From positions 32,001-96,000 of IMG/VR virus record IMGVR_UViG_3300031998_000006: a DNA stretch of 64,000 nt; one strand, 5' to 3'. The notes beneath the pieces were generated by a model that was not told the origin of the DNA, searched no databases, and saw only the letters and a list, made by a program, of their open reading frames with translations. Below, piece after piece: positions 387-26,412 of the stretch. This stretch comes from a virus (lineage: Duplodnaviria > Caudoviricetes). The position numbers and the translations under genes were made by a program. Position 1 is the first letter of the stretch. Each line of letters opens with the position of its first letter.

Positions 387-791
387 ATGAGCAAATATGA
401 ACGATTCAACCATGCAAAAACCTTTTTGCGGTATCACCTAATTTTTTCTACAAAATATCGTAGGAAGGTTTTAAATCCTATACGGGATGACTTGTTAGAA
501 GCTATGCGGATTGCCCAAGAGAAAAACCGGAACTTCGGCATAGAGATAGACGAGGTTGACCAAGACCATATCCATCTGCTCGTCCGTATCAAGCCGAATG
601 AGTCTATCTCTAGGGTGGTACATGAGCTCAAGCAACAATCTACCTATCTAATGTGGCAAAAACACCATGATTATCTATCCAAGTTCTACTGGTCCGGTCA
701 ACACCATCTATGGACTCGTGGATATTTCGCATCTACTATAGGAGATGTTTATGAAAAAACATTGGTGGAATATATTAAAAATCAAGGTTGA
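387..791 (+). CDS. tnpA: IS200/IS605 Y1 (HUH) transposase TnpA
   Basis: YHLIFSTKYRR, HUH motif DHIHLL, LWTRGYFASTIG and C-terminal EYIKNQ (catalytic Tyr). Confidence 0.95.
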   Translation: MSKYERFNHAKTFLRYHLIFSTKYRRKVLNPIRDDLLEAMRIAQEKNRNFGIEIDEVDQDHIHLLVRIKPNESISRVVHELKQQSTYLMWQKHHDYLSKFYWSGQHHLWTRGYFASTIGDVYEKTLVEYIKNQG

Positions 792-898
792 ATGATGATT
801 AAAAAATTGATAAATTTATGTACAAGGAGTTGGTTGCGTTCATACGCCACCCTAAAGGGTGGCATCTTTCCCGTAGCCTATTGTCAAAAGGAGTTACC

Positions 899-3289: not shown

Positions 3290-3532
3290 ATGGTTTACAA
3301 GGTTGACGATTCCCTTACCAATTTCAAGTTCTGGAGTGGTGCTGCTACGAATGCAGAACTCCTTACCTATGATGAACTAAAGCAACTTGACGATATTCTT
3401 CCGGAATATTTTGGTGAAGAAATCCCGACGCAGACGGAAATCAACGATATGTTCTGGTTTGATTTTCCGACCGTTGTGGAAGCCCTCGGTTACACCTACG
3501 ATGAAGACAATGGCGAAATCATCCGCGACTAG
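3290..3532 (+). CDS. Small acidic phage protein (FKFWSGA...TEINDMFWF)
   Basis: AAGGAG RBS and ATG at 3290; 80 aa. Confidence 0.8.
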   Translation: MVYKVDDSLTNFKFWSGAATNAELLTYDELKQLDDILPEYFGEEIPTQTEINDMFWFDFPTVVEALGYTYDEDNGEIIRD

Positions 3533-3544
3533 GAGTACAACGAT

Positions 3545-5284: not shown

Positions 5285-5304
5285 CAAGGAGAAAAAAAAA
5301 GATT

Positions 5305-5589
5305 ATGTCCAAATTAACTATCAAGACTAACGAAGAATCTGGCGATGCATCGTTGCGTGACCTCATCCATGATGACAAGGAAAATACCCTTCTTGCAAAG
5401 TTCGGTACTTTGGGTGATGCCAACCGTTGTTTTGCGGCACTTTCTGGTGTCCTTTTCGACAATGGCGAACTTGCACAGCACGAAACCGTGGCATTGTTCC
5501 CGATTATGTCTAATGTGGCAGTCTTTATGTATGATAAAGCCGGTGCTGATGCCGTGGAAGAATACATCCTTGAACATTTCGGAGTTTAG
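5305..5589 (+). CDS. Putative internal head protein, leader MSKLTIKTNE
   Basis: AAGGAG RBS; shared 10-aa leader. Confidence 0.85.
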   Translation: MSKLTIKTNEESGDASLRDLIHDDKENTLLAKFGTLGDANRCFAALSGVLFDNGELAQHETVALFPIMSNVAVFMYDKAGADAVEEYILEHFGV

Positions 5590-5591
5590 TT

Positions 5592-5990
5592 ATGTCAAAG
5601 TTGGTAATTAAGGCTTACGAACATAGGGTAAAGGAGTCCACGGACTCTACCACTTACTCCATCATTTCTGCTTTCGGAAAGTACGAGGATGCCGATGGGC
5701 ATTCCGGTACTCTCTATGATGCAAGCACCCTCGTAACTACCCGTGAGTTTGCTTCCGCAGACGAACTTATCCAGTTCGTTTATCGCAAGTTGAAGATGAA
5801 CCCGAAGAACTGCACGGTCAATTCCCTTGATAGGGATGAGGGCGAATCGTACATTAGCCTTGAGGTTGTGTACAAGACTCGCTCTACTACCCAGTCCTAT
5901 CTGTTGCGTATCGTAGGTTACAAGCGTATCGCCTGCCCGAAGGACGAACTCGTGGATGCATTCAAACCTATTTTGTACAAGGAAGGTTGA
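5592..5990 (+). CDS. Putative internal head protein, leader MSKLVIKAYE
   Basis: GGAG RBS; shared 10-aa leader. Confidence 0.85.
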   Translation: MSKLVIKAYEHRVKESTDSTTYSIISAFGKYEDADGHSGTLYDASTLVTTREFASADELIQFVYRKLKMNPKNCTVNSLDRDEGESYISLEVVYKTRSTTQSYLLRIVGYKRIACPKDELVDAFKPILYKEG

Positions 5991-6013
5991 TTTTAATTCA
6001 AGGAGACTGTATT

Positions 6014-6382
6014 ATGGCAAAATTTAAATGTTCTATGCAGAAGAAGAAGGAATCTCTTGCCAAGGAATCCGAAGCAAAGAAGAACGAAGGGTTTATGAAT
6101 GACCTTCCGTATGATGCATCGGTTGCAATAGAATCGCTTTGTGCCGAGATTATGGCACACCCGGACACATTTACTATTGAAGATTCTGCCGTAGCTGAAA
6201 TGTGTGGCAAATGGTATATCCGTAGTTATGCGGATGGCCCCACGATGGCACATAATGAAGATGAATGGGTGGAAGAAGTTACCGCTGGGTTGTCTGGTAG
6301 CCCAGTGGATGGTTCTCCGTTTGGAGCTGCCGAAGCGGAAGAATATGCTCACAAGGTATTCCAAGAAGAACTTGCAGAATAA
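6014..6382 (+). CDS. Acidic protein with KFKCSMQKKKESL leader
   Basis: AAGGAG RBS and ATG at 6014; the leader recurs elsewhere in the window. Confidence 0.85.
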   Translation: MAKFKCSMQKKKESLAKESEAKKNEGFMNDLPYDASVAIESLCAEIMAHPDTFTIEDSAVAEMCGKWYIRSYADGPTMAHNEDEWVEEVTAGLSGSPVDGSPFGAAEAEEYAHKVFQEELAE

Positions 6383-6545
6383 TATTTTTGAATAGATAGC
6401 ACGGATTAGCTATAAATTTTGTATATTTATAGCATCAAGTTTAATGAATTAGTGGCTTTCTTCATTAAACGATAAGAACCATTTTACGATGGCTCGTTTG
6501 GAATTGAAAGCCACAGTAAGTTCCGAACGAGTCATTTTTGTATCT

Positions 6546-8240
6546 ATGAGTAAGCATTGTTGGACATTGAAGGATAAGTATGAGTCACAGTTCTCTGTGT
6601 CTTTTTATCCATTTATGTTGTCCAACACGAAGAAAGCTGAAATCCTACATAGGGCAGAAGAGATACGAGCGGTTAGAAATGAAATATCGGAAATCGTACA
6701 TAATGATATGTTACGGTTTCAAGATATGTCAAAGTTTAGTTTTCAAAAAGTATTTAATTCTTTATATAATCATAGGCTTTCTAGTCATTATTTACATAAG
6801 GCGATTGATGATGTTTGGATAGCATATAATCGTAGATTTAAGGCGATTGCTCAAAAGATTGAATTTTATAAAGTTGATAAGCTAATCCCCACATTTTATA
6901 AAATCAATACTCATGGACATCATATAGGCGATTTACGTAGTATTACTTGTCATACTCGTAAAACTGATTTGACATTAGCTCTGACTTGGTTGGCTAAACA
7001 CGGTAATGATACTACTATTGAATGGTTAAAATCTACAATAGCTTCGGGGTCTTCCAAGAATGCCTTTTATTATAAGTTATTAGGATATATTCAACGTTTT
7101 GGGTTTGGGCGACTTATGCGGTTGGCAACATCTCGACGGGATGCCTTATTTAAGTCTTATTTTTTACGCGGTAGGATTATTTTTAATTCTTTGACATTTC
7201 ATGGAAGGAGTAGGCATACTCGACCTATTGTAAGTTTGGCTCGAAAAGAAAAGGGTAAGTTTAATTGTTATATAGAACTTTCATGGCTGTGGAATAATCA
7301 AGGTTATCATGGTGTGGCTACAAATGCTTTATGCATTCCGGTTAAGTATAGTAAAGCATATCATCGGTCTTTAACTAGATATACTCATAGTTTTGATACC
7401 TTTTATACTATGGTTATTACAGGTAAGGATATTCATATAGTTTTATATAGACGAGGGTATCGGTACAAGAATAATGTAGAGATTAGTGATAACAATACTA
7501 TAGGTATAGATGTTAATTCTAAAACTAATATGTTTACTTTAAGTACGGGTGGGTTTATAGCTAATGATTCATCCCTAATAAATGAGTTTATAGTAGAATC
7601 TCGTAAGGTTGATAGAAAGCAACATCACTATAATTCTAGGTATGCTATCCAGCCTGATGTTTCAGCATTTAAGATGTCTAAAACGGATAAAATTCATATC
7701 AGTTCTATTTCTAGGAAATTGAAGGAATCTAATAGAAGAACTATTGTAAACTTATGTAAGCAACTTGCCATTAAGGGTATATGGCATATTGCTATGGAAA
7801 ATTTAATTGGATTTAAAGGTACTAAATTACATCCAAATGATGAATTAGGGTTTAATCTAGGGAGGTTGCATAAATATATAAATTTATCCTCATTAAAGGA
7901 CGAGTTTATACATATAGCTCCCAAGTACGGGTTGTCCGTATCTCTTGTGCAACCCGAATACACATCAAAGATGTGTGGACATTGCGGATGCATAGATGAC
8001 CGCAATCGTCAAACCCAAGAAGTTTTTAAATGTGTTGAATGTGGGCATACAGAAAATGCTGACGTTCATAGTGCAAAGAATATCAAATTCCGTCTTACCT
8101 CGACCGTGTTAAGGGGGTACTTGTTCGAAAGAGCGAGGGATAACGGATATAGGAACTTTCAGCCAAAGAGCTTGTCTAGGTGGCAAGTAAGGGAGTTCCT
8201 AGAAAAATGTCGTAGCAGTGGGCTATTTAGTAGTTCATAG
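6546..8240 (+). CDS. tnpB: Large TnpB-family RuvC nuclease (~560 aa)
   Basis: IGIDVN, AMENL, PEYTSKMCGHCG, FKCVECGH and NADVHSAKNI. Very AT-rich. The start could instead be 6489. Confidence 0.88.
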   Translation: MSKHCWTLKDKYESQFSVSFYPFMLSNTKKAEILHRAEEIRAVRNEISEIVHNDMLRFQDMSKFSFQKVFNSLYNHRLSSHYLHKAIDDVWIAYNRRFKAIAQKIEFYKVDKLIPTFYKINTHGHHIGDLRSITCHTRKTDLTLALTWLAKHGNDTTIEWLKSTIASGSSKNAFYYKLLGYIQRFGFGRLMRLATSRRDALFKSYFLRGRIIFNSLTFHGRSRHTRPIVSLARKEKGKFNCYIELSWLWNNQGYHGVATNALCIPVKYSKAYHRSLTRYTHSFDTFYTMVITGKDIHIVLYRRGYRYKNNVEISDNNTIGIDVNSKTNMFTLSTGGFIANDSSLINEFIVESRKVDRKQHHYNSRYAIQPDVSAFKMSKTDKIHISSISRKLKESNRRTIVNLCKQLAIKGIWHIAMENLIGFKGTKLHPNDELGFNLGRLHKYINLSSLKDEFIHIAPKYGLSVSLVQPEYTSKMCGHCGCIDDRNRQTQEVFKCVECGHTENADVHSAKNIKFRLTSTVLRGYLFERARDNGYRNFQPKSLSRWQVREFLEKCRSSGLFSSS

Positions 8241-8384
8241 GAAAATCACAAGATTCTTGTAGATTTTTAGGTTACGATAGAAATGCTGCCCCAATTATTT
8301 GAAATAAACACCTATATGGCAAATACTATATTTGCATTTTATAGGTGTTTTTGTTATTATTAGGTATATCTGGAGATTTTAATT

Positions 8385-9452
8385 ATGAAAATAATTGAAG
8401 ACTATATCCCATTTAAGTGCGAAATTATAGATGACATTTCTAGGGTGGACGAGTCCGCACAGTCCGAGGTTGCCAAGTCGGGTGGCACGATTCTCGCCAT
8501 TGTGAAGGGTCCTCATTTCTGTCCCGGAAAGGTCAGCCGTAACCACAGACTTTATACGGAAGAACTCTGGGAAGCAGCAAGCAAGGATGAGGAAGTTCAG
8601 CGCAAGCTCGCCAATGGGCAGATGTTTGGTCGTGTGGGTCACGAAGCCGAAATTACCGATGAAGACATCGGGGCAGGCAACTACTCCCACATTACTCGTA
8701 ACATCGACTGGAAGACCGGCATTGCGGAATCCGTCATCTTCAACACCCCGATGGGCAATAATCTCTACACCCTTCTCCGTGCCGGTACTACCACGATGTA
8801 TGTCAGCTCCCGTGCTGACGGCGACTACTGTGGCAAGGACGAGGATGACAATGACATTCTTGACCCGAAGACCTACAAGCTGGAACGATTTGACTTTGTT
8901 CAGGACCCCGGCTTCCTTGATGCCAAGCCGAAGCTGATTTCCGAATCCAAGAAGAAAGAGGACGAAAACCTCAAGGAAACCATTGGAGAGAAGGTTGCAG
9001 AATCGCTTCTCAACCTCGCTATGGAAATCGGAGCGCCCCTTGAACTCGATGGCTCTACCTACTCTGTTGACAAGGTTTGCGAAAGCAAGGTGGATATGTC
9101 CGATTGCGAAACGATGACCAGCGATACCTACACTCTCGGCGACTTTACCGAAGTGACGGAAGATATGCGTAAGGGAATCGTTGAACATTTCAACAACCAG
9201 CAGAAGGAACTTGAGGAATCTCGCAAGGAACTTGAAGAAGCCCACAAGCTCATCAAGACCCTCCGCTTCGCCAACCGCAAGGGCTTGGACGAAGACTATG
9301 TGGAAAGACGAGTGAGTGAGGGTGCATCGCTTGAAAGCATCGAACGCGAACATCCCACTCCGCAGCCGTTCAAGGTTGTGGAAGCCAAGTTCAAGAAGGT
9401 CAACGAAGAATACGATACACTTGATTACCTGCTCGGCTTGGGCAGAAAGTGA
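8385..9452 (+). CDS. gp21: Prohead (maturation) protease, T4 gp21-like, with C-terminal extension
   Basis: SRNHRLY, FGRVGH (His), YVSSRADG (Ser) and FDFVQDPGF follow the gp21-family motif order; lies upstream of the scaffold and capsid genes. Confidence 0.85.
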   Translation: MKIIEDYIPFKCEIIDDISRVDESAQSEVAKSGGTILAIVKGPHFCPGKVSRNHRLYTEELWEAASKDEEVQRKLANGQMFGRVGHEAEITDEDIGAGNYSHITRNIDWKTGIAESVIFNTPMGNNLYTLLRAGTTTMYVSSRADGDYCGKDEDDNDILDPKTYKLERFDFVQDPGFLDAKPKLISESKKKEDENLKETIGEKVAESLLNLAMEIGAPLELDGSTYSVDKVCESKVDMSDCETMTSDTYTLGDFTEVTEDMRKGIVEHFNNQQKELEESRKELEEAHKLIKTLRFANRKGLDEDYVERRVSEGASLESIEREHPTPQPFKVVEAKFKKVNEEYDTLDYLLGLGRK

Positions 9453-9463
9453 GGAGCATAACT

Positions 9464-9838
9464 ATGGGTAAGATGAAGATTAAGGTTCACGAAGCCGTTT
9501 CGGATAGAGCGGATATTGTGATTAGCGATTTCTTGGATGACCATAAGGCTGATGCTCATGATTTAATGACTTCGGCATTTTCTGAAATTTTGTATGGAAT
9601 GGGTCCTAACCAGACGATAGACAAAGATTTGGCAGAAGTGTTAGCGGAATACGCTTATCGTATGATTTTGTACAACGCCTACTACTATGACCAGTACGTG
9701 CCTACTTTGGAAGAATTTGCCGAAATGTGCAATAAGAAGCGTATGGAAACCCCGTTAATGGATTCTACCACCCATGCATTTACGGATGCTATTATCAAGC
9801 AAATCTATATGCAATATGCTCCTTTGTTGAAGGACTAA
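9464..9838 (+). CDS. Putative internal head protein, leader MGKMKIKVHE
   Basis: GAGGAG RBS and ATG at 9464; shared leader. Confidence 0.85.
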   Translation: MGKMKIKVHEAVSDRADIVISDFLDDHKADAHDLMTSAFSEILYGMGPNQTIDKDLAEVLAEYAYRMILYNAYYYDQYVPTLEEFAEMCNKKRMETPLMDSTTHAFTDAIIKQIYMQYAPLLKD

Positions 9839-9854
9839 TTAAGGGCGGTTACTT

Positions 9855-10445
9855 ATGTCCAAAATGACTATCCGTTTGCATGAGAGCAAGGTACAGGAAG
9901 CAACGGGCCTGTTCTTGCCAGAATCCTTGAAGGAATCTCTTGAGTTCCACCTTCCGAACTGCACCGATTGCAAATCCGTAATCGTCTGCAAGTGTGACGA
10001 AGAACTCGACGAGGACATTCAATGGGCAATCCGAGATACATCACTTCCGGTGGTGGATGCTTCCATTGCTGACAACTACCTCGTCCTCGCATTGGAAGAG
10101 AATGCATCCGATGAGGAAATCCAGTCTATCTTCAACGAAGAGTACAAGAAAGCCATCCTTACGAAAGCCCCGAAGCTGGTGGCTTCTATGGATGTGGAAT
10201 CCTTGCAGAAAGCCCTCGTGGACTTGCAATCGGGTAGCATCGGCAAGCCGTGGGAACTCGACTTTACGAACTCCGTGTCTTGGGGCTTGAACATCTTCGA
10301 TGACATCCTCTATAGCGAACAGAGCGGTGCAAGCGTCTATGCCACCGCGTTCAACTATGTGGTTTGCGGACCGGACGGAAAGGAATTGACCACAACCCGT
10401 TCTATGGTGGAAGTGAAGAACTTCCTTGACACAAATTTCAAATAG
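9855..10445 (+). CDS. Putative internal head protein, leader MSKMTIRLHE
   Basis: Shared leader; acidic. Confidence 0.85.
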   Translation: MSKMTIRLHESKVQEATGLFLPESLKESLEFHLPNCTDCKSVIVCKCDEELDEDIQWAIRDTSLPVVDASIADNYLVLALEENASDEEIQSIFNEEYKKAILTKAPKLVASMDVESLQKALVDLQSGSIGKPWELDFTNSVSWGLNIFDDILYSEQSGASVYATAFNYVVCGPDGKELTTTRSMVEVKNFLDTNFK

Positions 10446-10457
10446 GAGAAGTTTACT

Positions 10458-10856
10458 ATGGCAAAAATGACAATCAAGGTTAAGGAAGCCAAGGAATACG
10501 GAAGCATCGAAGAGGTGTTCCAGGACTTGGGCTACTTCCCGGCAGAAGACAGCGATGACAAGAAGCTCGTCTGCTATATGGACTTTGAAACGGGCATAGA
10601 TGTTCCGAAGTATGTGTCCGTTATTACTCACTATGATTTCCAAGCCGATGACCTTCTTGTTGAAGTGGCAGCCGGTTCTTATGACCACACCACTCGTGAC
10701 GGAAGCATCGGGGATATGTTCTACACCTTCATCGGTGCGGAACTTGAACATCCCACTTTCGAGCAGGTCAAGAAAGCCTGCAAGAATGCGGAAAAGGCGG
10801 CAAAATACTATATTAAGGCTTTGCAGATTAACCTAAACACAGAAGGAGCGGTGTAA
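10458..10856 (+). CDS. Putative internal head protein, leader MAKMTIKVKE
   Basis: AGGAG RBS; shared leader. Confidence 0.85.
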   Translation: MAKMTIKVKEAKEYGSIEEVFQDLGYFPAEDSDDKKLVCYMDFETGIDVPKYVSVITHYDFQADDLLVEVAAGSYDHTTRDGSIGDMFYTFIGAELEHPTFEQVKKACKNAEKAAKYYIKALQINLNTEGAV

Positions 10857-10858
10857 TT

Positions 10859-11239
10859 ATGTCCAAGATGAAGATTACAGTTCACGAAGCCAAGAACGAT
10901 AAGATAGTACCCTACACCTTGATGCAGTGCTACTATCCCGACGAAAAGCGATGGGACCCGATTCTCGTTGAAATCAACTCCAATGACCAGGGCTGGTTCT
11001 ACGATGGACTCGCTCCGGTGGACAACTTCGGCAACTTCGCCTATTACGAATTTGGTTGGGATTTCATCCATCAGCGTTGCAGGAAGGGTACGGATAAGTG
11101 TGACCCCGAAATGGTTGCCGCTATGGAGAAGGAATACTTGTCCGGGGATGACCTTGCGGATGGCTACACCTACAAGAAGGTGGACGGAAGACTCGGTGCC
11201 TATGTTCCGAAGGGCTTGCGTTACATTGGAAACAATTAA
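10859..11239 (+). CDS. Putative internal head protein, leader MSKMKITVHE
   Basis: AAGGAG RBS; shared leader. Confidence 0.85.
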   Translation: MSKMKITVHEAKNDKIVPYTLMQCYYPDEKRWDPILVEINSNDQGWFYDGLAPVDNFGNFAYYEFGWDFIHQRCRKGTDKCDPEMVAAMEKEYLSGDDLADGYTYKKVDGRLGAYVPKGLRYIGNN

Positions 11240-11445
11240 GGAAACCGTCAATAAATCCCACCCATCTTTAGTGGGTGGGTTGAATTGCCCGAAAGAATAA
11301 GGTATATTATGTCTAACAATACGGGTGGAACGCCCGGAATTTACGCCGACGGAGATATTATGATACACGTTAGTGTAGCAGCCCCGGAAACCTTGCATAC
11401 TAGGATGTGTGAAACCTACACGTCTTTAGTGTGTGGGTAGTTCAT
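11240..11445 (+). mobile_element. Non-autonomous IS200/IS605 mini element (both ends plus a tnpB 3'/omegaRNA-like segment)
   Basis: Left hairpin CCCACCCA-TCTTTAG-TGGGTGGG and right end ACCTACACGTCTTTAGTGTGTGGGTAGTTCA, both resembling the ends of the 49.6-51.0 kb element. Confidence 0.75.
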
Positions 11446-11458
11446 GGAGAAAACCACT

Positions 11459-12442
11459 ATGATTATCGACAAGATTCTCGACCGCTATGATGGCGATGCC
11501 TATGACCCGGAAGACTTTTACAAGGCGATGATGTCCTACGAAGAAGGTACGGACTTTAAGATTTCTCGCGCTCTCGACAGTGGCGAGGAAGAGGACATCA
11601 AGCGTGAACTCTGTGCCTACATCGACGATGGTAACTACAATCCGAAGATTAAGGACTTCATCAATTCCGTGAAGTGGCTCGAAGCCGATGATGGCAAGGA
11701 CTACAGCAAGGAATTTGACATCCTCGGCGAATCCAAGAAGGGCGAATCCAAGTTCAAATGCTCTATGGCAAAGAAGAAGGAATCCCTCGCAAAGAAGAGC
11801 GAAGGGTTTAAGACTGATTGGCAAATGGATGTTGTCAATAGTCTGGAAACCATCAAAGATAAGTATGGTTTGGTTGTTGAATACAAGGAAATAGAGGATG
11901 GTCTTAATGGTGTTACGGATAGTTACACTGTGAAGATTAAGCGTGGACCCCTTTCGGAAATAATGGCAATCGTGGGTCCGGATTATTTGAACCTCTTCAC
12001 GGAGGATGTATCTCGCCAGTATTTATCTAAAGATTATGATTCTACAGAAGCACTTAACAAATTGGTTGATGCTATCTCGGAATATGTGAAAAAGAATGAC
12101 TGGACTAGGGAATCCAAGAAGAGCGAAGCAACTTACGATAGACCTGTGAGCCTGTATATCACCACTCGTTACGATGATGCGGAAGAGGCCCAGAATTTCA
12201 TCAAGGATATGGTTGGCGAAGAATTAACCGTGTCCAAGGACCGTAATGGGGATGCTCTGTATGTGAGTATCGAAGGTTCGGACGATGCCATTGATGCATT
12301 CCTTGAAGTTTACAAGGATGAATATGAAAACATCTTGAATGATTGCGATGTTGATGCAAACGGATGGGTTTCCCCGGATGATACTTACTACTCTTCTATT
12401 GAAGGTCGCAAGGAATTGATGGGCGAATCCACGAAGAAATAG
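11459..12442 (+). CDS. Acidic multi-module protein with ESKK linkers
   Basis: GGAG RBS and ATG at 11459. Internal GESKKGESKFKCSMAKKKESLAKKSE and RESKKSE. Confidence 0.85.
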   Translation: MIIDKILDRYDGDAYDPEDFYKAMMSYEEGTDFKISRALDSGEEEDIKRELCAYIDDGNYNPKIKDFINSVKWLEADDGKDYSKEFDILGESKKGESKFKCSMAKKKESLAKKSEGFKTDWQMDVVNSLETIKDKYGLVVEYKEIEDGLNGVTDSYTVKIKRGPLSEIMAIVGPDYLNLFTEDVSRQYLSKDYDSTEALNKLVDAISEYVKKNDWTRESKKSEATYDRPVSLYITTRYDDAEEAQNFIKDMVGEELTVSKDRNGDALYVSIEGSDDAIDAFLEVYKDEYENILNDCDVDANGWVSPDDTYYSSIEGRKELMGESTKK

Positions 12443-12485
12443 CTTACTACGTATAATCTTCTCCAGTCGCAACAAACTAAACAAT

Positions 12486-12514
12486 AGAGTTCCGAGTTTT
12501 TCGGAACTCTTTTT
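12486..12514 (+). terminator. Rho-independent terminator
   Basis: AGAGTTCCGA/TCGGAACTCT stem followed by a T tract. Confidence 0.75.
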
Positions 12515-12930
12515 GTATTGCCATTTTCTTTCGTACAAAATAAATATAATAGTTTATCTAAATATATAACAATTTATCTATAACTCCATACTTGATAAAG
12601 TGTTATATTTGTCAAAAAGTGTCAATTTATTTGTGGGTTTCTTAAAATCCGCAAGTTTTTTTATTATATTATTTTGTTGGACACTAGGATTGAATCTACC
12701 GAAGTCATTAAAAATGCTCGGCTTAAAAACCGAGAATGCCCGAAACCATCGTAGATAGCAATATCTATGTAAGTTAGGGGTATCAAATAGGTTTTTAATC
12801 TAGGAGAGGATTCAAATTCCAGTTTAAAAGGGACGGCATTTTGCCGATTTCAAAAACCTACCCTTTTAGGAGAGCAATCCAAAAGATTGCTTAATGCAAA
12901 CAAAGTAACCCTAACAGGAGACCATCCATT

Positions 12931-13500
12931 ATGGTTAATACCAACCGAATCGCTGCTCGTTACGAAGCTCGTACCGCTGCTTTCCGCAAGCGTCTCGAAG
13001 CCAAACGTGCAGAAAAGAAACTCCGTGAAGAAGACGAAGGTATCATCGAAGTTGACGGCGTTAAGCTGAATGCCGCTGAAACCGAAGTCATCTTTGCTGA
13101 CGAAGACAAGGACATCCAGGTTGTCGCTTCTCCGAATCCGGAAAACGAAAACGAAGTCGTTGTCGCTGTTCTCACTGCTTCCAAGGATGATGTTGAAGAA
13201 GAAGAAGTTCTCGGCTCTGCATCCGTTGAAGGTAGCGAAGAAACCGCAGGTGCAGAAGAAGCACGAAAGGCTGAACGTCGCGAAGCATTCCGCAAGCGCC
13301 TTGAAGCCAAACGTGCAGAAGGTAAGTCCGCAACACCCGCTCGTAACGAAGCTCGTATTGCCGCTTTCCGCAAGCGCCTTGAAGCCCGTCGTGCTGGAAA
13401 GACGAGCGAATCCAAGGCTACGGCTACCGCTGACGCCCGTAAGAAGAGCATCGCAGAAGCCCGTGCCAAGTTCCGTTCCAAAATCGGCAAGAAAGCCTAA
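12931..13500 (+). CDS. Prohead core/scaffold protein
   Basis: Immediately upstream of the capsid gene; highly charged and helical; three AFRKRLEA(K/R)RA repeats. Confidence 0.7.
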   Translation: MVNTNRIAARYEARTAAFRKRLEAKRAEKKLREEDEGIIEVDGVKLNAAETEVIFADEDKDIQVVASPNPENENEVVVAVLTASKDDVEEEEVLGSASVEGSEETAGAEEARKAERREAFRKRLEAKRAEGKSATPARNEARIAAFRKRLEARRAGKTSESKATATADARKKSIAEARAKFRSKIGKKA

Positions 13501-13518
13501 ACCCGGAGGAAATCCAAA

Positions 13519-15174
13519 ATGAATAAACCTTCTATTGAAGAACTCTCCAATGCCAAGTACGACCGCATCGTAGAATCCTACGAAGCCCGTTATGGCAAGC
13601 AGTTTGAAAAACTCGCCAAGAGCCAGTCTTTCAAGGGCAGCTTGAGCAAGAACGATATGTTCAACCTCGGCGCTCAACTCGACAACTACAAGAAGTACGA
13701 AAGCTATGTCGCTGAAAATTCCTCGGCTTCCAGCCTTGGTGTCCTTCCGCGTGTTGCTCTCGACCTCATCTCCGCAACTTACGCCCTCTCCATCGCTCCG
13801 CAGCTTGCATCCGTGCAGACTTTGGACGAAGCCCAGGGTCTTATCTACTTCAAGAAGACTTTCACTCACGGCTATCCGTTGACCGCACAGAATGGTCTTC
13901 CGGCTCTTCCGGAAGAACGCTGGATGGGTGCAGACGGCAAGTTTGAAGGTGAACAGTCCTTCAATGGTGCTTGGAAGAAGTGGCTTGACTCTCGTCCGCG
14001 TCCGGCAACGGGTGCTGGCGACACTCTCACTCCGGAAACTCTTACCGCCAAGAACTTTGATGCCATTACCTTCAATGCCTTGAAGGGTTGGCAGTCTTCT
14101 CCGACCGGCTATATGAGCGAACGCCAGTTCGTGGCTGTTGACGGCGACACCGCCACCATCAAGTATGGTGTTGGCAACCTCCGCTGGAACACCCCGATTA
14201 ACATTCGCCTTGTTGCACCGGATGGTAAGGTGGAAGACATCGTTGGTCTTACCGCTGGTCCGGGTCAGCTCCCGACCTTCTACGGCAAGGTTGCTGTGAC
14301 CGCAGCCCAGAGCGGTAAGGACATCGTTCTCTCTGGCTTCAATGGCTACCAGGGTATGGTTGCCTATGATGTTGACTTTGAAAAGGCACCGGACGTTCCG
14401 GCTATTGAATACGGTCTCGACACGAAGGTTGTCAGCGCCGAAATCATTGGCTTGAAGGAAATGCTCGGTACTTTCAAGAGCTTCCAGTTCAACAAGCGCT
14501 TCGGTAAGGCTGCTTCCGATGAAGTCCTCGCTGACCTCACTGGTCACATGGCTATGGCTGAATCCGAAAAGGTTCTCGCCGCCTATGTCCAGTCCGCTAA
14601 CAAGTGGGCTCCGCTCACTTGGGATTTGAACAAGCCGAATACCATCTCCGAATACGAACATCGTCAGTCCTTCCTCTATGTCATCCAGGCTGCTTCTGCC
14701 GCCATCGGCGCTCGTGCAGGCAAGGGCTATGCTAACAAGATTGTTGCCGGTTATGTTGCTTGCCAGTACATCGCTTCCCTTCCGGGCTTCCGTCCTGCTC
14801 CGCAGACGAACCTCGTTGGTCCGCACGTGTATGGCACTCTCGAAAACGAAGGTATCACGGTTATTCGTAGCAACACCATCGTTGCACCGAACGAAGTTAT
14901 CTGTGCTTACAGCTCCGACAACTCCCCGTTCGAAGCTCCGGTTGTTTGCGCTACCTATATGCCGGTGTTCCTTACCGACACTATGCCGGTTGCCGATAAT
15001 CCGTTCCAGACCCAGCGTGCAATCGCTTCTTGGAAGGCTATCGAACCGGTGGTTGCTGAATTTGTTCAGCGCATCGTGATTACGAAGAACACTGCCCCGG
15101 CTGCGGATGCCTATGTGTATCTTACCAGCAATCCGGGTAATGGCTCTTCCAACGGTGGTAGCGGTAACGGCTAA
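13519..15174 (+). CDS. gp23: Major capsid protein, T4 gp23-like
   Basis: LASVQTL...GLIYF, GKGYANKIVA and EAPVVCATYMP match gp23-family motifs; strong high-expression codon bias; GGAGG RBS. Confidence 0.9.
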   Translation: MNKPSIEELSNAKYDRIVESYEARYGKQFEKLAKSQSFKGSLSKNDMFNLGAQLDNYKKYESYVAENSSASSLGVLPRVALDLISATYALSIAPQLASVQTLDEAQGLIYFKKTFTHGYPLTAQNGLPALPEERWMGADGKFEGEQSFNGAWKKWLDSRPRPATGAGDTLTPETLTAKNFDAITFNALKGWQSSPTGYMSERQFVAVDGDTATIKYGVGNLRWNTPINIRLVAPDGKVEDIVGLTAGPGQLPTFYGKVAVTAAQSGKDIVLSGFNGYQGMVAYDVDFEKAPDVPAIEYGLDTKVVSAEIIGLKEMLGTFKSFQFNKRFGKAASDEVLADLTGHMAMAESEKVLAAYVQSANKWAPLTWDLNKPNTISEYEHRQSFLYVIQAASAAIGARAGKGYANKIVAGYVACQYIASLPGFRPAPQTNLVGPHVYGTLENEGITVIRSNTIVAPNEVICAYSSDNSPFEAPVVCATYMPVFLTDTMPVADNPFQTQRAIASWKAIEPVVAEFVQRIVITKNTAPAADAYVYLTSNPGNGSSNGGSGNG

Positions 15175-15210
15175 TCCGTAAGAGAGTTCAACACCTCGGT
15201 TGAATAATCG

Positions 15211-15244
15211 GTGTCACTAGGGTAAAACCTAGTGGCACTTTTTT
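15211..15244 (+). terminator. Rho-independent terminator after the capsid gene
   Basis: GTGTCACTAGG/CCTAGTGGCAC stem followed by a T tract. Confidence 0.8.
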
Positions 15245-15314
15245 ATTTGCGGTTTGTTCGCAGTCAACAATATTTTGTTATTTTTATCAATGTATCTTTG
15301 CAAAGGATTCCATT

Positions 15315-15452
15315 ATGGCAGAAAGCACCGAAGAAGCCGATGGCAAGTTGAATAACTATGTGGAATATATGCTTATATTCCTTGAGAACGAAGTAGTCCG
15401 CAATGGCTACTACGATGAACCAGAATATCCCCTTGAACTTTTGTATCTATAA
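15315..15452 (+). CDS. Small acidic protein (45 aa)
   Basis: AAGGA RBS. MAESTEEADGKLNNYVEYMLIFLENEVVRNGYYDEPEYPLELLYL; below the ORF-track size cutoff. Confidence 0.5.
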   Translation: MAESTEEADGKLNNYVEYMLIFLENEVVRNGYYDEPEYPLELLYL

Positions 15453-15466
15453 GGAGAAATCATCCT

Positions 15467-17476
15467 ATGACGAACGAACGCAGAAGTAATGCCGATTACT
15501 TGCAGGAAATATGGGATTCCCTTGAGGGTGTCTGGGACAAGTCCAAGTATAATATGGAAAAGGGCTACGATGACGAGTACGGCTGTGAATGTATCACAAT
15601 CTCGCTTCGTGACAATGAGGATGTCCGTGCAAAGATTTATGTGGAAGACCACGAAGGTCAGCATCCTACCGGCTTTGAGGTGGTGTACCGCTACCCCGGC
15701 GACAAGGGTGTGGGCATAGGTGGCTACTACGAGTTCCAGAGTACCGATATGGACGGACTGGGTGAGGAAGTGTTTGACTACTTTGACGAAATTAAGAACA
15801 AGGTTGGAGAATCTATGAAGAACGAAGGAAAGAACGAAGTGTCCAACTTCTCTAGGGATAGCTTGGGAGTATCGTTTGACGGTAAGTTCGGCAATATGCG
15901 AAAGGGCGAAAGCTGGGTAGTTTACCCGGAAACCTTGGACAAGGGCTACATCTGCATCCAGGGCGATACTCGCTTCGGCTATATCAATGTGAACAAGGGC
16001 TTCCTCGTGTTGTCCGCACCGCATAGCACCCCGATTTATGCCGCACTAATGGTTGACATCAACAAGGGCAAGGCACAGTGTATTCCGCTTGAGAAGGAAA
16101 TCGTTGACCAGATTTTGAATGCCGTGAATGACAGAACCATCACGGACCATAGCCTTGACAATGTTATCCGCAATGCCGATGTCACGGATGACGAACTCAA
16201 GGGCGAAGCAAAGCAGATGGAAGCCACGAAGAAGTATTACGGTTATGGCAAGGATGATGTTATTGACAAGGAAGACACTGACTTTATGTGGCAAGTTGCT
16301 TATGATTGGTTTGAGGACCGATTGCCCGAACGATTAAAGGGTAAGGCTGATAGTGCCGTGTATAAAGTCATTGATAAGGATAGCCGTGCATACGAAGAAA
16401 TCTTGACTATGGACGATTACCACGATTACTTGCAAAAGTACGGTCCTGGCATCATCAAGGACATCAAGGCTAACAACGAAGCCAAGCAGTGCGAAGATGT
16501 GCAGTATTACTATGACCGCTTGAACCCTACTGAAAAGGAAAAGTTCAACGGACTCTCCGAACAGATTGAAACTTTGGTTGGTATGTATGACGAGAACGGG
16601 GAGTTGTCCAAACCGCAGCAAGACCAGCTTAAAGAATTGCGTGACACCATCTATGTGTTCGGATATGTTGCAAGGGGCTATGTCAGCTTTGCCGATGAAG
16701 TCCTTGCCAACTATGGGGTTGAACCTTTGCTTGACTCCAAGGAGCCAGTCTTCGATGAAGCCAGACAACCCGCAGAATATAGTGTGCATTCCTACAATGA
16801 TACGGACATCCAGCATTATGAAGACGGCACACCCGAAGAATGGAGATGTCAGCGTTGTGGTGGTTTGAACGGTGGCGAAGATGGTGAACCTTTTGGAAAA
16901 TACATTACGGATTCTAATGGAAAGGTTGTGATACGCTTACTGTGTTCTGGTTGTGCAGATGACGCTTGCGATATTCTTAATGCTACTCACGGAAATGTCC
17001 GTAAGGCTATAGGACTTGGTGAATCCAAGAAGTCCGAAGATGCTTCCGACCCTATGGTTATCTACAAGGAAGGTGGCATTTATCGCACTACACCGAAGTC
17101 CAACTACGATGCCCGTATTCAAAATGCTTTCCGCATCCAGAAGTGGGATGGCTTTGACACTCCGCAGGAAATCATCAACTATTGCACGAAGTATTCTAGT
17201 GGCTTTGACCCGGAGAATGTGATTATCGTCGAATCCAAGAAGAGCGAGTCCTTGACCCTCAAGCAGAAGGAACTCAAGGATATGGCACGCTACGGACAAG
17301 CCGAGGACATCACTACCATTTCCGACGCGGAAGCCAAGGAACTCAAGAAGAAGGGCATTGAAACGGTGGGCATCAGCCGTGGTGTCTATGGTATGAACGG
17401 TGCGTTGCTTCGTGACAACGAGGGTAATAAGTATGTGATTACCGCAAGAAGCAGTAATTTGTTCTACTTTGTTTGA
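15467..17476 (+). CDS. Multi-module polyprotein-like protein with E-x-K-x-x-E linkers
   Basis: Linkers ESMKNE, EAKQME, EAKQCE and ESKKSE x2 (17021, 17231); one module has CxxC...CxxC. Confidence 0.88.
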   Translation: MTNERRSNADYLQEIWDSLEGVWDKSKYNMEKGYDDEYGCECITISLRDNEDVRAKIYVEDHEGQHPTGFEVVYRYPGDKGVGIGGYYEFQSTDMDGLGEEVFDYFDEIKNKVGESMKNEGKNEVSNFSRDSLGVSFDGKFGNMRKGESWVVYPETLDKGYICIQGDTRFGYINVNKGFLVLSAPHSTPIYAALMVDINKGKAQCIPLEKEIVDQILNAVNDRTITDHSLDNVIRNADVTDDELKGEAKQMEATKKYYGYGKDDVIDKEDTDFMWQVAYDWFEDRLPERLKGKADSAVYKVIDKDSRAYEEILTMDDYHDYLQKYGPGIIKDIKANNEAKQCEDVQYYYDRLNPTEKEKFNGLSEQIETLVGMYDENGELSKPQQDQLKELRDTIYVFGYVARGYVSFADEVLANYGVEPLLDSKEPVFDEARQPAEYSVHSYNDTDIQHYEDGTPEEWRCQRCGGLNGGEDGEPFGKYITDSNGKVVIRLLCSGCADDACDILNATHGNVRKAIGLGESKKSEDASDPMVIYKEGGIYRTTPKSNYDARIQNAFRIQKWDGFDTPQEIINYCTKYSSGFDPENVIIVESKKSESLTLKQKELKDMARYGQAEDITTISDAEAKELKKKGIETVGISRGVYGMNGALLRDNEGNKYVITARSSNLFYFV

Positions 17477-19628
17477 TAACTGGGGTCTTTTACTTATGAA
17501 CTATGTTAGTATCACAACATCTTACCAAGACGGACGGAACATTGTATATGTGTCTTCTATTGGTCTAGGTAAGACTATGGCAGAAGCGGAAGATAATTGC
17601 GAAAAAACTTTGTTTAAGTATCATCCGCAAGTGAAGCCTTACTATAGGGGCATCCAGAGTTGCCAGAGTCATCACAGTAATTATGATTTCAAATTGGAAG
17701 ATGCATTTACGGAATTACGTGGTTTGGACAAGAACCCGGAATTGATGCAGATACTCCTGGATTACTTGCCCGAAGCGATTACTAGGGAATTGCCCGGAAT
17801 CAAGGTTGTTTCCGATGTGACCACCAAGACTACTCCTAATGGTTTCGTTGTTTCCGTAGACTTGCAAGATAGGGATGGTAACGAGTTCACATTGGATGTG
17901 GGCTATGGTAGCAAGGTGGGTGTCCACGTTTCCATCTTCTCGGACAAGGATAATCGCTATGTGAGTGATACGGCAAAGGGTTATCCACCGCAATGCCCTA
18001 ACATCAAGGAATTGTTAAATCAATACTACAAGCACATCAATCGTGCTAGACAAAACAAGGAAGAAAGTATGAAACAATCTAAATGCTCTATGCAGAAGAA
18101 GAAGGAATCGCTCTACAAGAAAAATGAGGGTGTGTCCGCTAGTTCGTTGTTCGCAATCGACCCTAAATCGGGTCATTCCAAGATTTACGATGAACTTTGT
18201 GACATCGTAGATAACGTGTCCTATTCCGGTGTGCTGAATGCCGAAGATGCCACGGACGAATATCCCGATGCTGTTAGTGTGGATTTTGAAGTTAGTTCCG
18301 ATGATTCCGCACCGTATTCTGTGATGGTGTCTATCTATGGCAAGGAAGAAAACGATGAAGAAAGCCAGTTGTCTTATTCTGTTTGGGATGAGTACAATAA
18401 CAATTTGAAGTCCTACAAATCGGCTGTGGGTGGCGCTCCGTTAGGTTATCAAAAGGGTTATAAGATTTCCGAATTGCCCCAGATGTGGGATGACCTTCAA
18501 AAAGATATTCAGTCTTTGGTGTCCGATGCAGAACAAGATGAATCCAAGAAGTCCGAAGCTAATCTTGACGACTTGAAGGGAATGGTTGTGAGCGAAGGAA
18601 CTATGCGTTCCGAAGACCTCATTCCGAAGTTCCTGAATGTCTTGAAGACCTATGGCAAGGATAAGTACGATGCCTACGTCAAGGAAAACCCGGAAGTTCT
18701 CGACCTCGAAGGTATGGACGATGAAACGATGGGCTATGTAGTTGACGAACTCTTCAACAAGCTGGACGAAATCTCTCCGGAAGGATTCTATTTTGCCGCC
18801 CACCCGGATGATGGTGCTTGCTATGGATTCTGGGAAGTTGACCCGAATGAATCCAAGAAGTCCGAAGACTTTGATATGAACAAGGCTTTCTTCCAGGCTA
18901 AAAAGGCTATCACTGATTGGACCAAGAGGCAGGGACATAAGACCCTGGAATGGCTCTATACGGATGGTCGTAAGAGTCCAACTTCTTATCCGTCGGGTAT
19001 TTGGGATTTTGAATGGGACACGGGTAATGGGATGGCTACTGCGGAACTTAAAGTTTCTCCGTATGAGACCCGTACTAATTCGTGGAACAACAGTATGGAC
19101 TTTAGTTTGAGAGTGGGAACTGAAGATAAGCCTACGTTCTATACTTCCGTGGAAGATGTTCTGTATGCGTTAGATACGTTAATTAGCAAGAACGAAATCA
19201 AGATGGAATCCAAGAAGCCGGAAGCCTGCAAGGGTGGCAAGGACGATGATAAGAAGGGTGGCAAGGATGGCAAGGCTGCCGAATCCAAGAAGTCCGAAGG
19301 TGTCAGTGGTACAATCACGATGAACATTGACTATAACACCTTTATGCGTCTTCTTGATGCCGCCGCGTTCCTTGATGCAGATGAAGATTACAAGGATGCT
19401 CTCTGGGATTATTATTCCGAACTGGGCGAAATTGGTGGCGAAGCCTTTGTGTTCTTTGATAACCTCTTCCAGTACACGGCTTGGTACGATGTTGACGAAA
19501 TGTATGACGAAATAGGAGAACGCTTCCAAGACGAATCCAAGAGCAAGGAAGAATGCATTCAGGATGCTATCGACGATGGCGATATGACCATCTATCAGTA
19601 CAAGGACCACTACCTCGTTCTTAACTAA
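17469..19628 (+). CDS. Multi-module polyprotein-like protein with ESKKSE linkers
   Basis: Internal SKCSMQKKKESL, ESKKSE x3 (18540, 18849, 19281) and ESKKPE. The true start may be the ATG near 17496. Confidence 0.88.
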   Translation: MFDNWGLLLMNYVSITTSYQDGRNIVYVSSIGLGKTMAEAEDNCEKTLFKYHPQVKPYYRGIQSCQSHHSNYDFKLEDAFTELRGLDKNPELMQILLDYLPEAITRELPGIKVVSDVTTKTTPNGFVVSVDLQDRDGNEFTLDVGYGSKVGVHVSIFSDKDNRYVSDTAKGYPPQCPNIKELLNQYYKHINRARQNKEESMKQSKCSMQKKKESLYKKNEGVSASSLFAIDPKSGHSKIYDELCDIVDNVSYSGVLNAEDATDEYPDAVSVDFEVSSDDSAPYSVMVSIYGKEENDEESQLSYSVWDEYNNNLKSYKSAVGGAPLGYQKGYKISELPQMWDDLQKDIQSLVSDAEQDESKKSEANLDDLKGMVVSEGTMRSEDLIPKFLNVLKTYGKDKYDAYVKENPEVLDLEGMDDETMGYVVDELFNKLDEISPEGFYFAAHPDDGACYGFWEVDPNESKKSEDFDMNKAFFQAKKAITDWTKRQGHKTLEWLYTDGRKSPTSYPSGIWDFEWDTGNGMATAELKVSPYETRTNSWNNSMDFSLRVGTEDKPTFYTSVEDVLYALDTLISKNEIKMESKKPEACKGGKDDDKKGGKDGKAAESKKSEGVSGTITMNIDYNTFMRLLDAAAFLDADEDYKDALWDYYSELGEIGGEAFVFFDNLFQYTAWYDVDEMYDEIGERFQDESKSKEECIQDAIDDGDMTIYQYKDHYLVLN

Positions 19629-19647
19629 TCGCTGTACCTCGCGTTGT

Positions 19648-19674
19648 ACCGCCCCTATTTTGGGGCGGTTTTTT
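19648..19674 (+). terminator. Rho-independent terminator
   Basis: ACCGCCCC/GGGGCGGT stem followed by a T tract. Confidence 0.8.
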
Positions 19675-19749
19675 CGTATAGGGAGATTTCTCATAGGATA
19701 GGTTTTTAGTTATATTTCCTAGTGGAAAACATTTGCAGAGGATTTAGCT

Positions 19750-20562
19750 ATGTCCAAATTGACCATCAAGGTACACGAAAACAAGTCCGAGGATTTCAAC
19801 TACGGGCGTGTTAGCACTCCGGTTGCCCAAGCCTACAAGGTTTTGGATGACCAGTATTGCGATGAAAAGACCGGTAAGATGACCGGTCCGGCATTTGACT
19901 CTATTATGCTTATGGCAGAGAATGATGAACCGATTTACAACTATGCCCAAAGCAAGAGAGTTAAGTCGCATTCTGTTGCTTGGATGGCTCTGTTGAAGGA
20001 CATTGCGATGACACTTCAATGGCACGATGATGTGCCACACGCTGAAAACTTGACCTCCGAGCAGGTCAAGAATTGGTTCAAGTTCAAGGGTCAGGATTAT
20101 AAGACGGAACTCGCTCCGTTGGTAAAGCTCATCGACGAATGGCGTGCCGATATGTTCAAGGACGAATCCAAGAAGTCCGAATCTCTCGCAGCGGATATGT
20201 CCAAGGCGATTCAGCAAAGCAAGCCTAAAGTTCTCTTGAGTGATGATGCTGTTGACTACTTTAATGATTACGATTCTATGCTTGACCAATTTGAAGGGGC
20301 ATACCAGACGGTCATTCACATCAATGGTAAGCACGGAGTTGAAGAAATGTGGTTTATTTATGAACCGGATGACAACATCGTTGCTATTGGTGACTTTGAT
20401 GTAGACCGTGCCGATGCTGAAAGGGCAAAGGAACTTATGGAAAAGTTCGTCCGTGGCGAACTTACCGAAAAGCCCGGAAACTCCGATGACCTTGAAAGTG
20501 TTGATTACATCGCCATCGTGGATGGCAATACCTACACCTCTACCGCATTCGTGGAAGGATAA
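19750..20562 (+). CDS. Putative internal head protein with MSKLTIKVHE leader and an ESKKSE linker
   Basis: Carries both motifs; ESKKSE at 20164. Confidence 0.88.
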   Translation: MSKLTIKVHENKSEDFNYGRVSTPVAQAYKVLDDQYCDEKTGKMTGPAFDSIMLMAENDEPIYNYAQSKRVKSHSVAWMALLKDIAMTLQWHDDVPHAENLTSEQVKNWFKFKGQDYKTELAPLVKLIDEWRADMFKDESKKSESLAADMSKAIQQSKPKVLLSDDAVDYFNDYDSMLDQFEGAYQTVIHINGKHGVEEMWFIYEPDDNIVAIGDFDVDRADAERAKELMEKFVRGELTEKPGNSDDLESVDYIAIVDGNTYTSTAFVEG

Positions 20563-23479: not shown

Positions 23480-23661
23480 CCCAAGCACTTGATAATTTAT
23501 TATATACCCATATATGCATACACCGAAAATTTCAAAATTAAATCGGATGGGTGGTATTAGCATATAGGGAGTACATAGTAATTTTTTTATTAAAATAAGT
23601 CCAAGCCTATTGCAAGCATAGTAATAATTATGTACATTTGTTACTGAACACGGGTGAAAGT

Positions 23662-24873: not shown

Positions 24874-25221
24874 GGCGTGAGCGGTTGACCGAAAATGCAA
24901 AGTTTATGTTATTGTCGAATTTATTTGTTTGTAATGTATGGTGTTGACGATTTGAGATAATATAGTTGTGGTGTAGGGAGTTTACTTATAGAATATGCTG
25001 GCGGTTTTTATTACCTTCTATGCTTATTTATCGAGTACCACTTGATAATTTGTTATATAAGTAGATAATTTGTTAGATAACTAGATAATTTATTATATTT
25101 AGTTTGTACAAACTAGCGAACCATATACATTTTCAAATTAACGAAACTCCGTTGTTTTTGCATCGGGTTTTTTTATTTATATTTAAACTGTTGCAACAAA
25201 AATAAAAGGAGTATTCCTCAA

Positions 25222-26409: not shown

Positions 26410-26412
26410 CCT

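Follow-up and report, generated by a model that had tools for sequence, protein, structure and literature searches.

Seven otherwise unrelated open reading frames (ORFs) in a 64,000-nucleotide stretch of an uncultivated phage genome begin with the same type of short leader (consensus MSKMKIKVHE), which ends at Glu10. The stretch, here called the window, comprises bases 32001-96000 of the 215,310-base virus record IMGVR_UViG_3300031998_000006 (record-wide coordinates are given as G000). The genome contains T4-like head genes, including those for a gp23-like capsid protein and a prohead protease of the gp21 family, and it belongs to a phage clade known solely from metagenomes. The best-supported reading of our results is that, by analogy with T4, the leader represents a sequence-unrelated counterpart of the T4 capsid targeting sequence (CTS) in an uncultivated clade of ~215-kb phages and that it is tied to a system of polyprotein linkers. 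Such a leader would mark cargo proteins for loading into the capsid and for trimming, a role that we consider fairly probable. Location in the virion, cleavage at Glu10, targeting through residues 1 to 7, and injection would all follow from the same analogy.

Leader sequences and their conservation

A six-frame scan of the window with the strict pattern M[SGA]K[LM].I[KRT]..E gave exactly seven matches, at positions 5305, 5592, 9464, 9855, 10458, 10859, and 19750, all on the plus strand, and none in any of 30 mononucleotide shuffles of the window. These are the same seven sites and peptides that had been reported in an initial annotation of this DNA. All seven matches lie 4 to 15 codons downstream of a stop codon and for that reason were taken to be ORF starts. 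A Shine-Dalgarno-like GGAG or AGGA lies ahead of each start, and the upstream DNA otherwise contains no common sequence. For the gene at 9464, the ORF listing begins at a GTG codon (9449); the ATG at 9464, preceded by GAGGAG, is the likelier start.

The count of seven is correct for the window and too low for the whole 215-kb genome, which holds at least 11 leader-type starts. Two further full-length leaders are located outside the window, at G000 191119 (MPKLKIKIHE) and G000 191400 (MSRLKIKVHE), and a core pattern identified two shortened ones, at G000 192588 (MLKIKVHE) and G000 208433 (MALTIKLHE). With this core pattern, G000 has nine ORF starts, each with a Met zero to three residues upstream, and 20 shuffles yielded between zero and two matches; two further minus-strand matches in G000 have no adjacent Met and look like chance occurrences. 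In addition, the N terminus of a 627-amino-acid (aa) ORF (window 21303) looks, judging from its residues, like a leader variant with an insertion, comparable to the MALRINIHE-SKKTE that is present on relatives' orthologues of another cargo protein.

The sequences downstream of the leader had been described as unrelated, and an all-against-all BLASTP comparison of residues 13 to the end of this genome's nine leader proteins agrees, the best pair having an E value of 0.72. Searches of Pfam and PHROGs gave no match above noise for the seven window leader proteins or for a set of 33 leader proteins, one member of which matches phrog_5162, a family of unknown function. The cargo proteins range from 87 to 399 aa in length and are mostly acidic, with a median isoelectric point (pI) of 4.5; among 38 proteins, the pI is below 6 in 32 and above 8 in only 1. 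For four of the nine cargo proteins that carry a full leader in this genome, searches of the fetched parts of related genomes yielded no homologue. Homologues of the 9855 protein, at 37% to 39% overall identity, retain the sequence M[SP]KM[TI]IRLHESK[KV]QEA almost unchanged. AlphaFold2 modeling of this family from a 12-row alignment gave a mean predicted local distance difference test (pLDDT) score of 84 and a predicted template modeling (pTM) score of 0.77. In the model of the window protein, residues 1 to 17 have pLDDT values below 50, and the remainder averages about 90. The leader is a linear motif that outlasts its cargo and, as modeled, lies outside the fold. The suggestion that the leader is β-strand-like had its sole basis in the alternating residue pattern, which is present, and the model leaves these residues of the one leader protein unstructured. 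Foldseek searches with the same model gave no match at an E value of ≤0.001 in either the PDB or BFVD, and there was no usable match for the 19750 protein in the ESM Atlas.

A search with the capsid protein recovered 15 related IMG/VR loci (67% to 84% identity). Fetched loci and contigs of related metagenomic phages, or of G000 itself (L027 and L045), are referred to here by L numbers. A degenerate DNA pattern for MxK[LMIVF]xIKVHE identified 11 stretches in all of IMG/VR, 5 of them on contigs already recovered via the capsid protein; of the other 6, 5 have tblastx matches to this genome and 1 (L020) has none. In metagenome contigs, the consensus-leader pattern gave 16 stretches, and all 12 of those tested match this genome by tblastx. 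Whole-record scans of five related records found 4, 7, 3, 1, and 0 leader matches, all on the same strand as the capsid gene, and none with a control pattern read backwards. The consensus-leader DNA pattern had no match in 185,579 reference prokaryote genomes and gave no prophage or host link.

Pooling yielded 38 distinct full-length leader ORFs, in all of which M1, I6, and E10 are present, as is either M or L at position 4. S2 is found in 29 of the 38, K3 in 31, K7 in 29, and H9 in 28. At position 8, 28 have V, 6 have L, 2 have I, 1 has A, and 1 has T (V/L/I in 36); at position 11, 15 have S and 10 have A. A wider pattern covering variants of 7 to 11 residues identified 88 distinct ORFs in 688,829 bases, with no match in the reversed-sequence control, and the 88 ORFs fall into 48 cargo clusters (BLASTP E value, <1e-3). 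A survey of related phages for the same leader on different cargo, as suggested in the initial annotation, is thus positive. The length of 10 residues proposed there applies to the full-length leaders and not to the variants. The cargo set is also variable as proposed, differing between relatives under the same leader, and by analogy it would be loaded into the head.

Among the 38 leader ORFs, identity is 0.79 at codon positions 1 and 2 and 0.49 at position 3, and the leader DNA comprises 37 distinct 30-mers. Conservation of the leader acts on the peptide and not on the DNA. A DNA-level element, being unlikely because of these codon-position statistics and the diversity of the 30-mers, was rejected. 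Simple paralogy was also rejected, on the basis of the BLASTP nonsimilarity of the cargo proteins and the 48 clusters.

In five genomes (G000, L019, L021, L024, and L037), a leader with its own Met is located in frame behind a conserved domain of ~108 aa (G000 191712-192311, corresponding to L027:7712-8311). This domain ends with YSLYAIGESK and is followed by the Met-leader and then by cargo that differs from genome to genome. The codons for I-G-E-S-K ahead of the in-frame leader would spell a ribosome-binding-like GGAGAA, and the arrangement of domain, leader, and cargo may reflect a protein fusion, translation initiated internally, or a combination of the two.

Putative cleavage sites and interchangeable linkers

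T4 gp21 is described as cleaving after Glu in L/I-x-E (PMC9026906), and in the T4 CTS, residues 4 and 7 are reported to govern targeting and residues 8 and 10 to govern processing (PMC9026906, section 2.6). The leader of T4 IPII and IPIII, translated from the T4 record, has 10 residues and ends with I-A-E followed by A. The leader identified here ends with [V/L/I]-x-E followed by S or A, residues 8 to 10 forming a hydrophobic-x-Glu motif, and it is one of three sites of this T4-type pattern in the phage. The second is V-x-E66 followed by N in the capsid protein, a putative maturation site that is present in 13 of 13 clade members and has a variable middle residue; in T4 gp23, 65 residues are removed (PMC9026906). 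The third is [ILVA]-[ST]-E followed by S in the protease. Here, E187-S188 is invariant in 24 of 24 aligned members, and profile alignment places it on I-T-E-S near the C terminus of T4 gp21. The putative autocleavage site, between E187 and S188 of L-I-S-E187-S-K-K-K-E, is located at the end of the catalytic domain and combines a hydrophobic-x-Glu site with the beginning of an ESKKxE motif. C-terminal processing has been described for gp21 and for the proteases of phiKZ and SPN3US (PMC9026906, PMC5694885).

The protease has 72 homologue clusters in a large protein collection. Ten of 24 aligned family members match PF03420 (Peptidase_S77, the T4 gp21 family), and comparison of the family profile with T4 gp21 by hhalign gave a probability of 93.4% (E value, 2.6e-7; 147 columns). 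Searches with the protease against PDB sequences gave chance-level matches only. A 224-kb contig carries one protease homologue (P0016) that NCBI lists as a hypothetical protein from the metagenome-assembled genome of a Clostridia bacterium; this name is either a host hint or the result of a phage contig having been binned with a bacterium.

In a plain prohead-protease maturation site, the motif alone is conserved and the flanks are free, as at the capsid and protease sites, which conserve hydrophobic-x-Glu only. The leader does not fit this description, as it conserves S2, K3, M/L4, I6, K7, and mostly H9 in addition to the cleavage motif. Since K3, M/L4, I6, K7, and mostly H9 are fixed beyond hydrophobic-x-Glu, the leader appears to be more than a plain cleavage site. 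Moreover, every leader keeps its own Met, the in-frame internal ones included, which suggests that the leader is made as an N terminus. Together, these features fit a tag that would be made as a free N terminus and would bind something in the prohead.

ORF 19750 contains both the leader and an ESKKSE sequence (window 20164), on which the initial annotation had based a link between the two motifs, and this link is also seen among relatives, in which the leader Glu frequently doubles as the first Glu of E-SKKxE (for example, in MSKMKIKVRE-SKKNE and MALRINIHE-SKKTE) and orthologous domains carry either motif. In this genome, ESKKSE linkers occur in ORFs of the head module and in one further ORF, of 717 aa, close to a second leader cluster outside the window (G000 191 to 192.6 kb); Pfam searches with the large ESKKSE proteins gave no match. 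A third recurrent motif, KCSM[QA]KKKESL[AY]K..[SN]EG, was identified in three acidic ORFs of the head module (window ~6010-6080, 11730-11800, and 18070-18130).

The same cargo can be found behind different motifs in different genomes: (i) the cargo of the 10859 gene, which has a leader here, forms the last segment of a 639-aa ORF in L004 and L005, directly after GESKKSE; (ii) domain A of the 19750 protein follows ESKKSE within a 743-aa ORF in L003, and domain B is preceded by ESKKSE here and by the short leader MKITIHE in L010 and L011; (iii) a leader-led domain of L001 is found inside the 669-aa ORF of the window after NNEAKQCE (73% identity); (iv) one cargo family is preceded by the leader in L002, by ESKKSE or ESKKNE as part of longer ORFs in L001 and L007, and by a short variant together with ESKKNE in L008; and (v) another cargo family has the leader in L010 and KCSM..ESLAKKRSE in L011, L002, and L007. 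Because orthologous domains carry each of them in different genomes, the leader, ESKKSE, and KCSMQKKKESL are interchangeable marks of the N-terminal edge of a mature domain. The leader and ESKKSE appear, from these sequence comparisons, to be alternative N-terminal boundary modules of one cargo-cassette system.

Gene context and other features of the window

The protease, the scaffold candidate, and the capsid protein (Table 1) are encoded in the same order as T4 genes 21, 22, and 23, with cargo genes inserted. Of the seven window leader genes, five occupy the interval from the protease to the scaffold candidate or closely follow the capsid gene, and the remaining two are ~3 kb upstream of the protease, adjoining an ESKKSE protein. 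Outside the window, the leader genes at G000 191119, 191400, and 192588 are near Rad50/Mre11-like and ParB-like genes and another ESKKSE protein, and the one at G000 208433 is between exonuclease genes. A 437-aa ORF adjoining the leader cluster at 191 to 192.6 kb (G000 193523-194836; L027:9523-10836) has a weak match to a ParB-like nuclease (ParBc_2) below the Pfam cut-off and may be another packaged enzyme.

Table 1. Leader genes, linker-containing ORFs, and head and tail genes identified in the window
Feature	Position in window	Strand	Properties
Leader ORF 1	5305..5589	+	94 aa; MSKLTIKTNE; least canonical end (T-N-E); no Pfam or PHROG match
Leader ORF 2	5592..5990	+	132 aa; MSKLVIKAYE
Leader ORF 3	9464..9838	+	124 aa; MGKMKIKVHE
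Leader ORF 4	9855..10445	+	196 aa; MSKMTIRLHE followed by SKVQE; cargo family best conserved among relatives
Leader ORF 5	10458..10856	+	132 aa; MAKMTIKVKE; orthologues with short leader variants
Leader ORF 6	10859..11239	+	126 aa; MSKMKITVHE
Leader ORF 7	19750..20562	+	270 aa; MSKLTIKVHE; order: leader, domain A, ESKKSE (20164-20181), domain B
627-aa ORF	21303..23186	+	N terminus MALRINNHTKDFAGKLHE followed by SKKSE
579-aa acidic ORF	3545..5284	+	two E[SA]KKSE sites; candidate polyprotein; no Pfam or PHROG match
332-aa acidic ORF	11444..12442	+	ESKKGE, ESKKSE, and KCSMAKKKESL motif
669-aa acidic ORF	15467..17476	+	two ESKKSE sites
719-aa acidic ORF	17469..19628	+	four ESKK[SP]E sites and KCSMQKKKESL; candidate polyprotein
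Prohead (head maturation) protease, T4 gp21 (S77) family	8385..9452	+	phrog_207, E value 1e-20
Scaffold candidate, 189 aa	12931..13500	+	directly upstream of capsid gene; conserved in relatives
Major capsid protein, gp23-like	13519..15174	+	PF07068, E value 1.2e-8
Tail sheath gene	26413-28698		downstream of capsid region

Based on its position and composition, the 189-aa ORF is a plausible scaffold. It is conserved in all relatives and contains three AFRKRLEA[KR]RA basic helix repeats, which flank a small beta unit of acidic composition and an acidic linker that is disordered. Its AlphaFold2 model (pLDDT, 66) consists of a helix, a five-strand beta unit, an acidic disordered linker, and a long helix.

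Among the matches listed, annotated capsid proteins from myoviruses of Rhizobium, Vibrio, and Escherichia share 25% to 30% identity with the capsid protein, and the closest cultured relatives by capsid protein and protease, again among the matches listed, are myoviruses of the same three hosts. Among those matches, the head modules of the cultured phages nearest by capsid protein (Rhizobium phage RHph_TM30 and Escherichia phage IME392) are compact and lack such a cargo expansion. A blastn search with window positions 8001-16000 gave no match in a cultured phage collection.

An ORF resembling IS200/IS605-type Y1 transposases and several TnpB-like ORFs are scattered in the structural module (window 381-791, 1924-3225, 6489-8240, and 23638-24873; G000 189449-190834 on the minus strand; and L045:2931-4709). 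Two of these ORFs, at window 1924 and G000 189449, are clearly similar to one another, and one of the set matches PHROG transposase families. A 922-aa ORF (L045:20-2788; G000 200020-202788) has HNH endonuclease matches at residues ~103 to 181 and a weak large-terminase match at residues 354 to 470; a terminase that has acquired a homing-endonuclease domain, by insertion or by fusion, is one possibility. Very long open frames of 636, 658, and 1374 aa are antisense to clearly coding plus-strand genes (window 3377-5287, 12850-14826, and 25183-29307, respectively, all on the minus strand); these are probably codon-composition artefacts that could mislead naive ORF calling. A 316-aa ORF (window 818-1768) ends in a DDGSDDGSDDGSGI repeat and has no family match.

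Comparison with known packaging signals and alternative explanations

The leader resembles the T4 CTS, carried by IPI, IPII, IPIII, and Alt, in being a short N-terminal propeptide on otherwise unrelated proteins (10 residues in IPII and IPIII) and in having a hydrophobic residue at position 8, Glu10, and then a small residue. As in T4, a gp21-family protease and a gp23-like capsid protein are encoded in the same genome, and the cargo varies between related phages (PMC3012670, PMC9026906). Some cargo genes are also away from the head cluster in both, T4 ipII and ipIII being located between denV and e. However, only 2 of the 10 residues match (M1 and E10), which falls short of sequence homology. 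Position 8 is mostly Val here and Leu or Ile in T4, and the leader described here alternates basic and hydrophobic residues. The cargo is acidic, whereas the T4 internal proteins are described as basic (PMC9026906), and the number of cargo genes per genome is much higher (at least 11 here). Furthermore, the leader swaps with polyprotein linkers (ESKKSE and KCSMQKKKESL), for which no T4 counterpart is described in excerpts of PMC3012670, PMC5694885, PMC9026906, and PMC10229621. The analogy drawn in the initial annotation therefore stands for the peptide module on unrelated, fast-turning-over cargo, the gp21-family protease, the gp23-like capsid protein, and hydrophobic-x-Glu at positions 8 to 10, but it does not extend to the charge of the cargo.

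In the giant phages phiKZ, 201phi2-1, and SPN3US, head and ejection proteins are reported to be cut after the Glu of a short x-x-E motif by a gp21-related protease, which is itself C-terminally autocleaved, and the SPN3US paralogues gp53 and gp54 have identical N termini that the authors took as CTS-like (PMC5694885). The Glu at the end of a short motif and the gp21-related protease are common to those phages and the one described here. However, the propeptides described there are mostly longer than 100 residues and end with A/S/G-x-E (PMC5694885), whereas here they have 7 to 11 residues and V/L/I at position 8 in 36 of 38. Likewise, the shared N terminus of SPN3US joins two paralogues (PMC5694885), and here it joins dozens of unrelated proteins. 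None of phiKZ, 201phi2-1, and SPN3US is among the matches listed for the capsid protein (15 of 22) and the protease. The cargo-loading peptides of encapsulins are also short linear tags that are unrelated to the cargo fold and direct diverse cargo into an HK97-fold shell. In contrast to the N-terminal leader with its putative cleavage site, most of them are located at the C terminus, and they attach to the shell protein itself and stay uncleaved.

We propose that the leader would be an N-terminal propeptide that works like the T4 CTS. Residues ~3 to 7, in which basic and hydrophobic residues alternate (K3, M/L4, I6, and K7), would hold the protein in the core of the assembling prohead, and residues 8 to 10 ([V/L/I]-x-E) would be the site for the phage's gp21-family prohead protease. 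Cutting after Glu10, the protease would free the acidic mature cargo inside the head, and the cargo would probably be injected with the DNA. The same cargo domains could alternatively be delivered as segments of large polyproteins with ESKKSE-type linkers between them. More tentatively, and as a possibility that we do not favor to the same degree, the leader may be an autonomous, portable capsid-loading tag of an origin independent from that of the T4 CTS, within a combinatorial cassette system. In that case, dozens of acidic effector domains that are unrelated to one another (perhaps DNA mimics or antidefense proteins of other kinds) would move freely between leader-led single genes and ESKKSE-linked polyproteins, and all of them would be freed in the head by one Glu-specific protease and injected.

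Several points weigh against a CTS-like role. Every step from the motif to a packaged and cleaved protein is made by analogy. At least four leader genes are outside the head module; an occurrence beyond structural genes had been named beforehand as counting against the idea, and some copies do lie outside that module, as T4 ipII and ipIII do. The leader is not strictly N-terminal in every reading frame, since it follows the ~108-aa domain in frame in five genomes. Two window leaders, ending with T-N-E and A-Y-E, are a weaker fit to hydrophobic-x-Glu. The acidity of the cargo is another mismatch with T4, whose internal proteins are basic. Many ESKKSE sites also have no hydrophobic residue two positions before either Glu, and the protease rule is therefore not the simple T4 one for all boundaries. 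Finally, the protease of the window does not itself match PF03420, even at an E value of ≤1, so its connection to the gp21 family runs via the family profile.

The leader could instead be a high-affinity prohead-protease site only, without a targeting function, an explanation that we consider unlikely. The cargo would then enter the head by passive trapping, by its own fold, or only within polyproteins, and the stand-alone genes would be former polyprotein segments that kept the junction. Such an origin agrees with the interchange of the leader and ESKKSE before orthologous domains, with the leaders in frame behind another domain in five genomes, and with the leader Glu being frequently followed by SKKxE. 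However, the capsid and protease sites need hydrophobic-x-Glu only, and the leader fixes more than cleavage seems to require. The Met kept by every leader, suggesting synthesis as an N terminus, also speaks for more than a junction, and the stand-alone proteins share nothing else able to target 48 unrelated cargo clusters.

Similarly improbable is a role that has nothing to do with the capsid. The leader might be a recognition tag for a phage or host enzyme (in modification or degradation control), a localization signal, or a nascent-peptide effect on the translation of coregulated genes. The invariant terminal Glu and the V/L/I two positions before it nevertheless fit the specificity of the protease family encoded in this genome and the length and layout of the T4 leader, and the leader is equivalent to the ESKKSE linkers of head-module ORFs (and one 717-aa ORF). 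While several leader genes are outside the head module and no cargo matches a recognizable structural-protein family, as would be expected for a function of this kind, gene location is weak evidence because T4 ipII and ipIII are also outside the head gene cluster. That the shared start is a relic, either a 5' DNA segment for recombination or cassette exchange or the last recognizable part of one diverged paralogue family, is very improbable: cargo domains are clearly shuffled between genes and genomes, but the third codon positions (0.49 versus 0.79) and the 37 distinct 30-mers among 38 do not fit a DNA segment, the range of cargo (87 to 399 aa, 48 clusters) and the leader before different domains of the same protein family are contrary to simple paralogy, and paralogy would not explain why residues 1 to 10 alone stay fixed.

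A full-text literature search found the strings KIKVHE, ESKKSE, and MSKMKIKV in no paper, and, judged by titles, none of the papers listed for CTS terms is about this clade. In excerpts of PMC3012670, PMC5694885, PMC9026906, and PMC10229621, the T4 CTS is the only short portable capsid-loading tag described, and it has already been used to load foreign proteins into heads (PMC10229621). If the CTS-like role is correct, a second tag of different sequence in another phage lineage would indicate that the principle is general and could supply an orthogonal tool. On the more tentative reading of a portable tag in a cassette system, the clade would provide a second, orthogonal tag for packaging together with a list of about 50 candidate families of injected effectors. 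That leader and linker replace each other before one and the same domain illustrates in concrete terms how packaged cargo is shuffled by phages. Antidefense functions such as that of T4 IPI* came from the internal-protein class, and the leader described here singles out a large number of fast-evolving orphan proteins whose delivery by the virion is likely.

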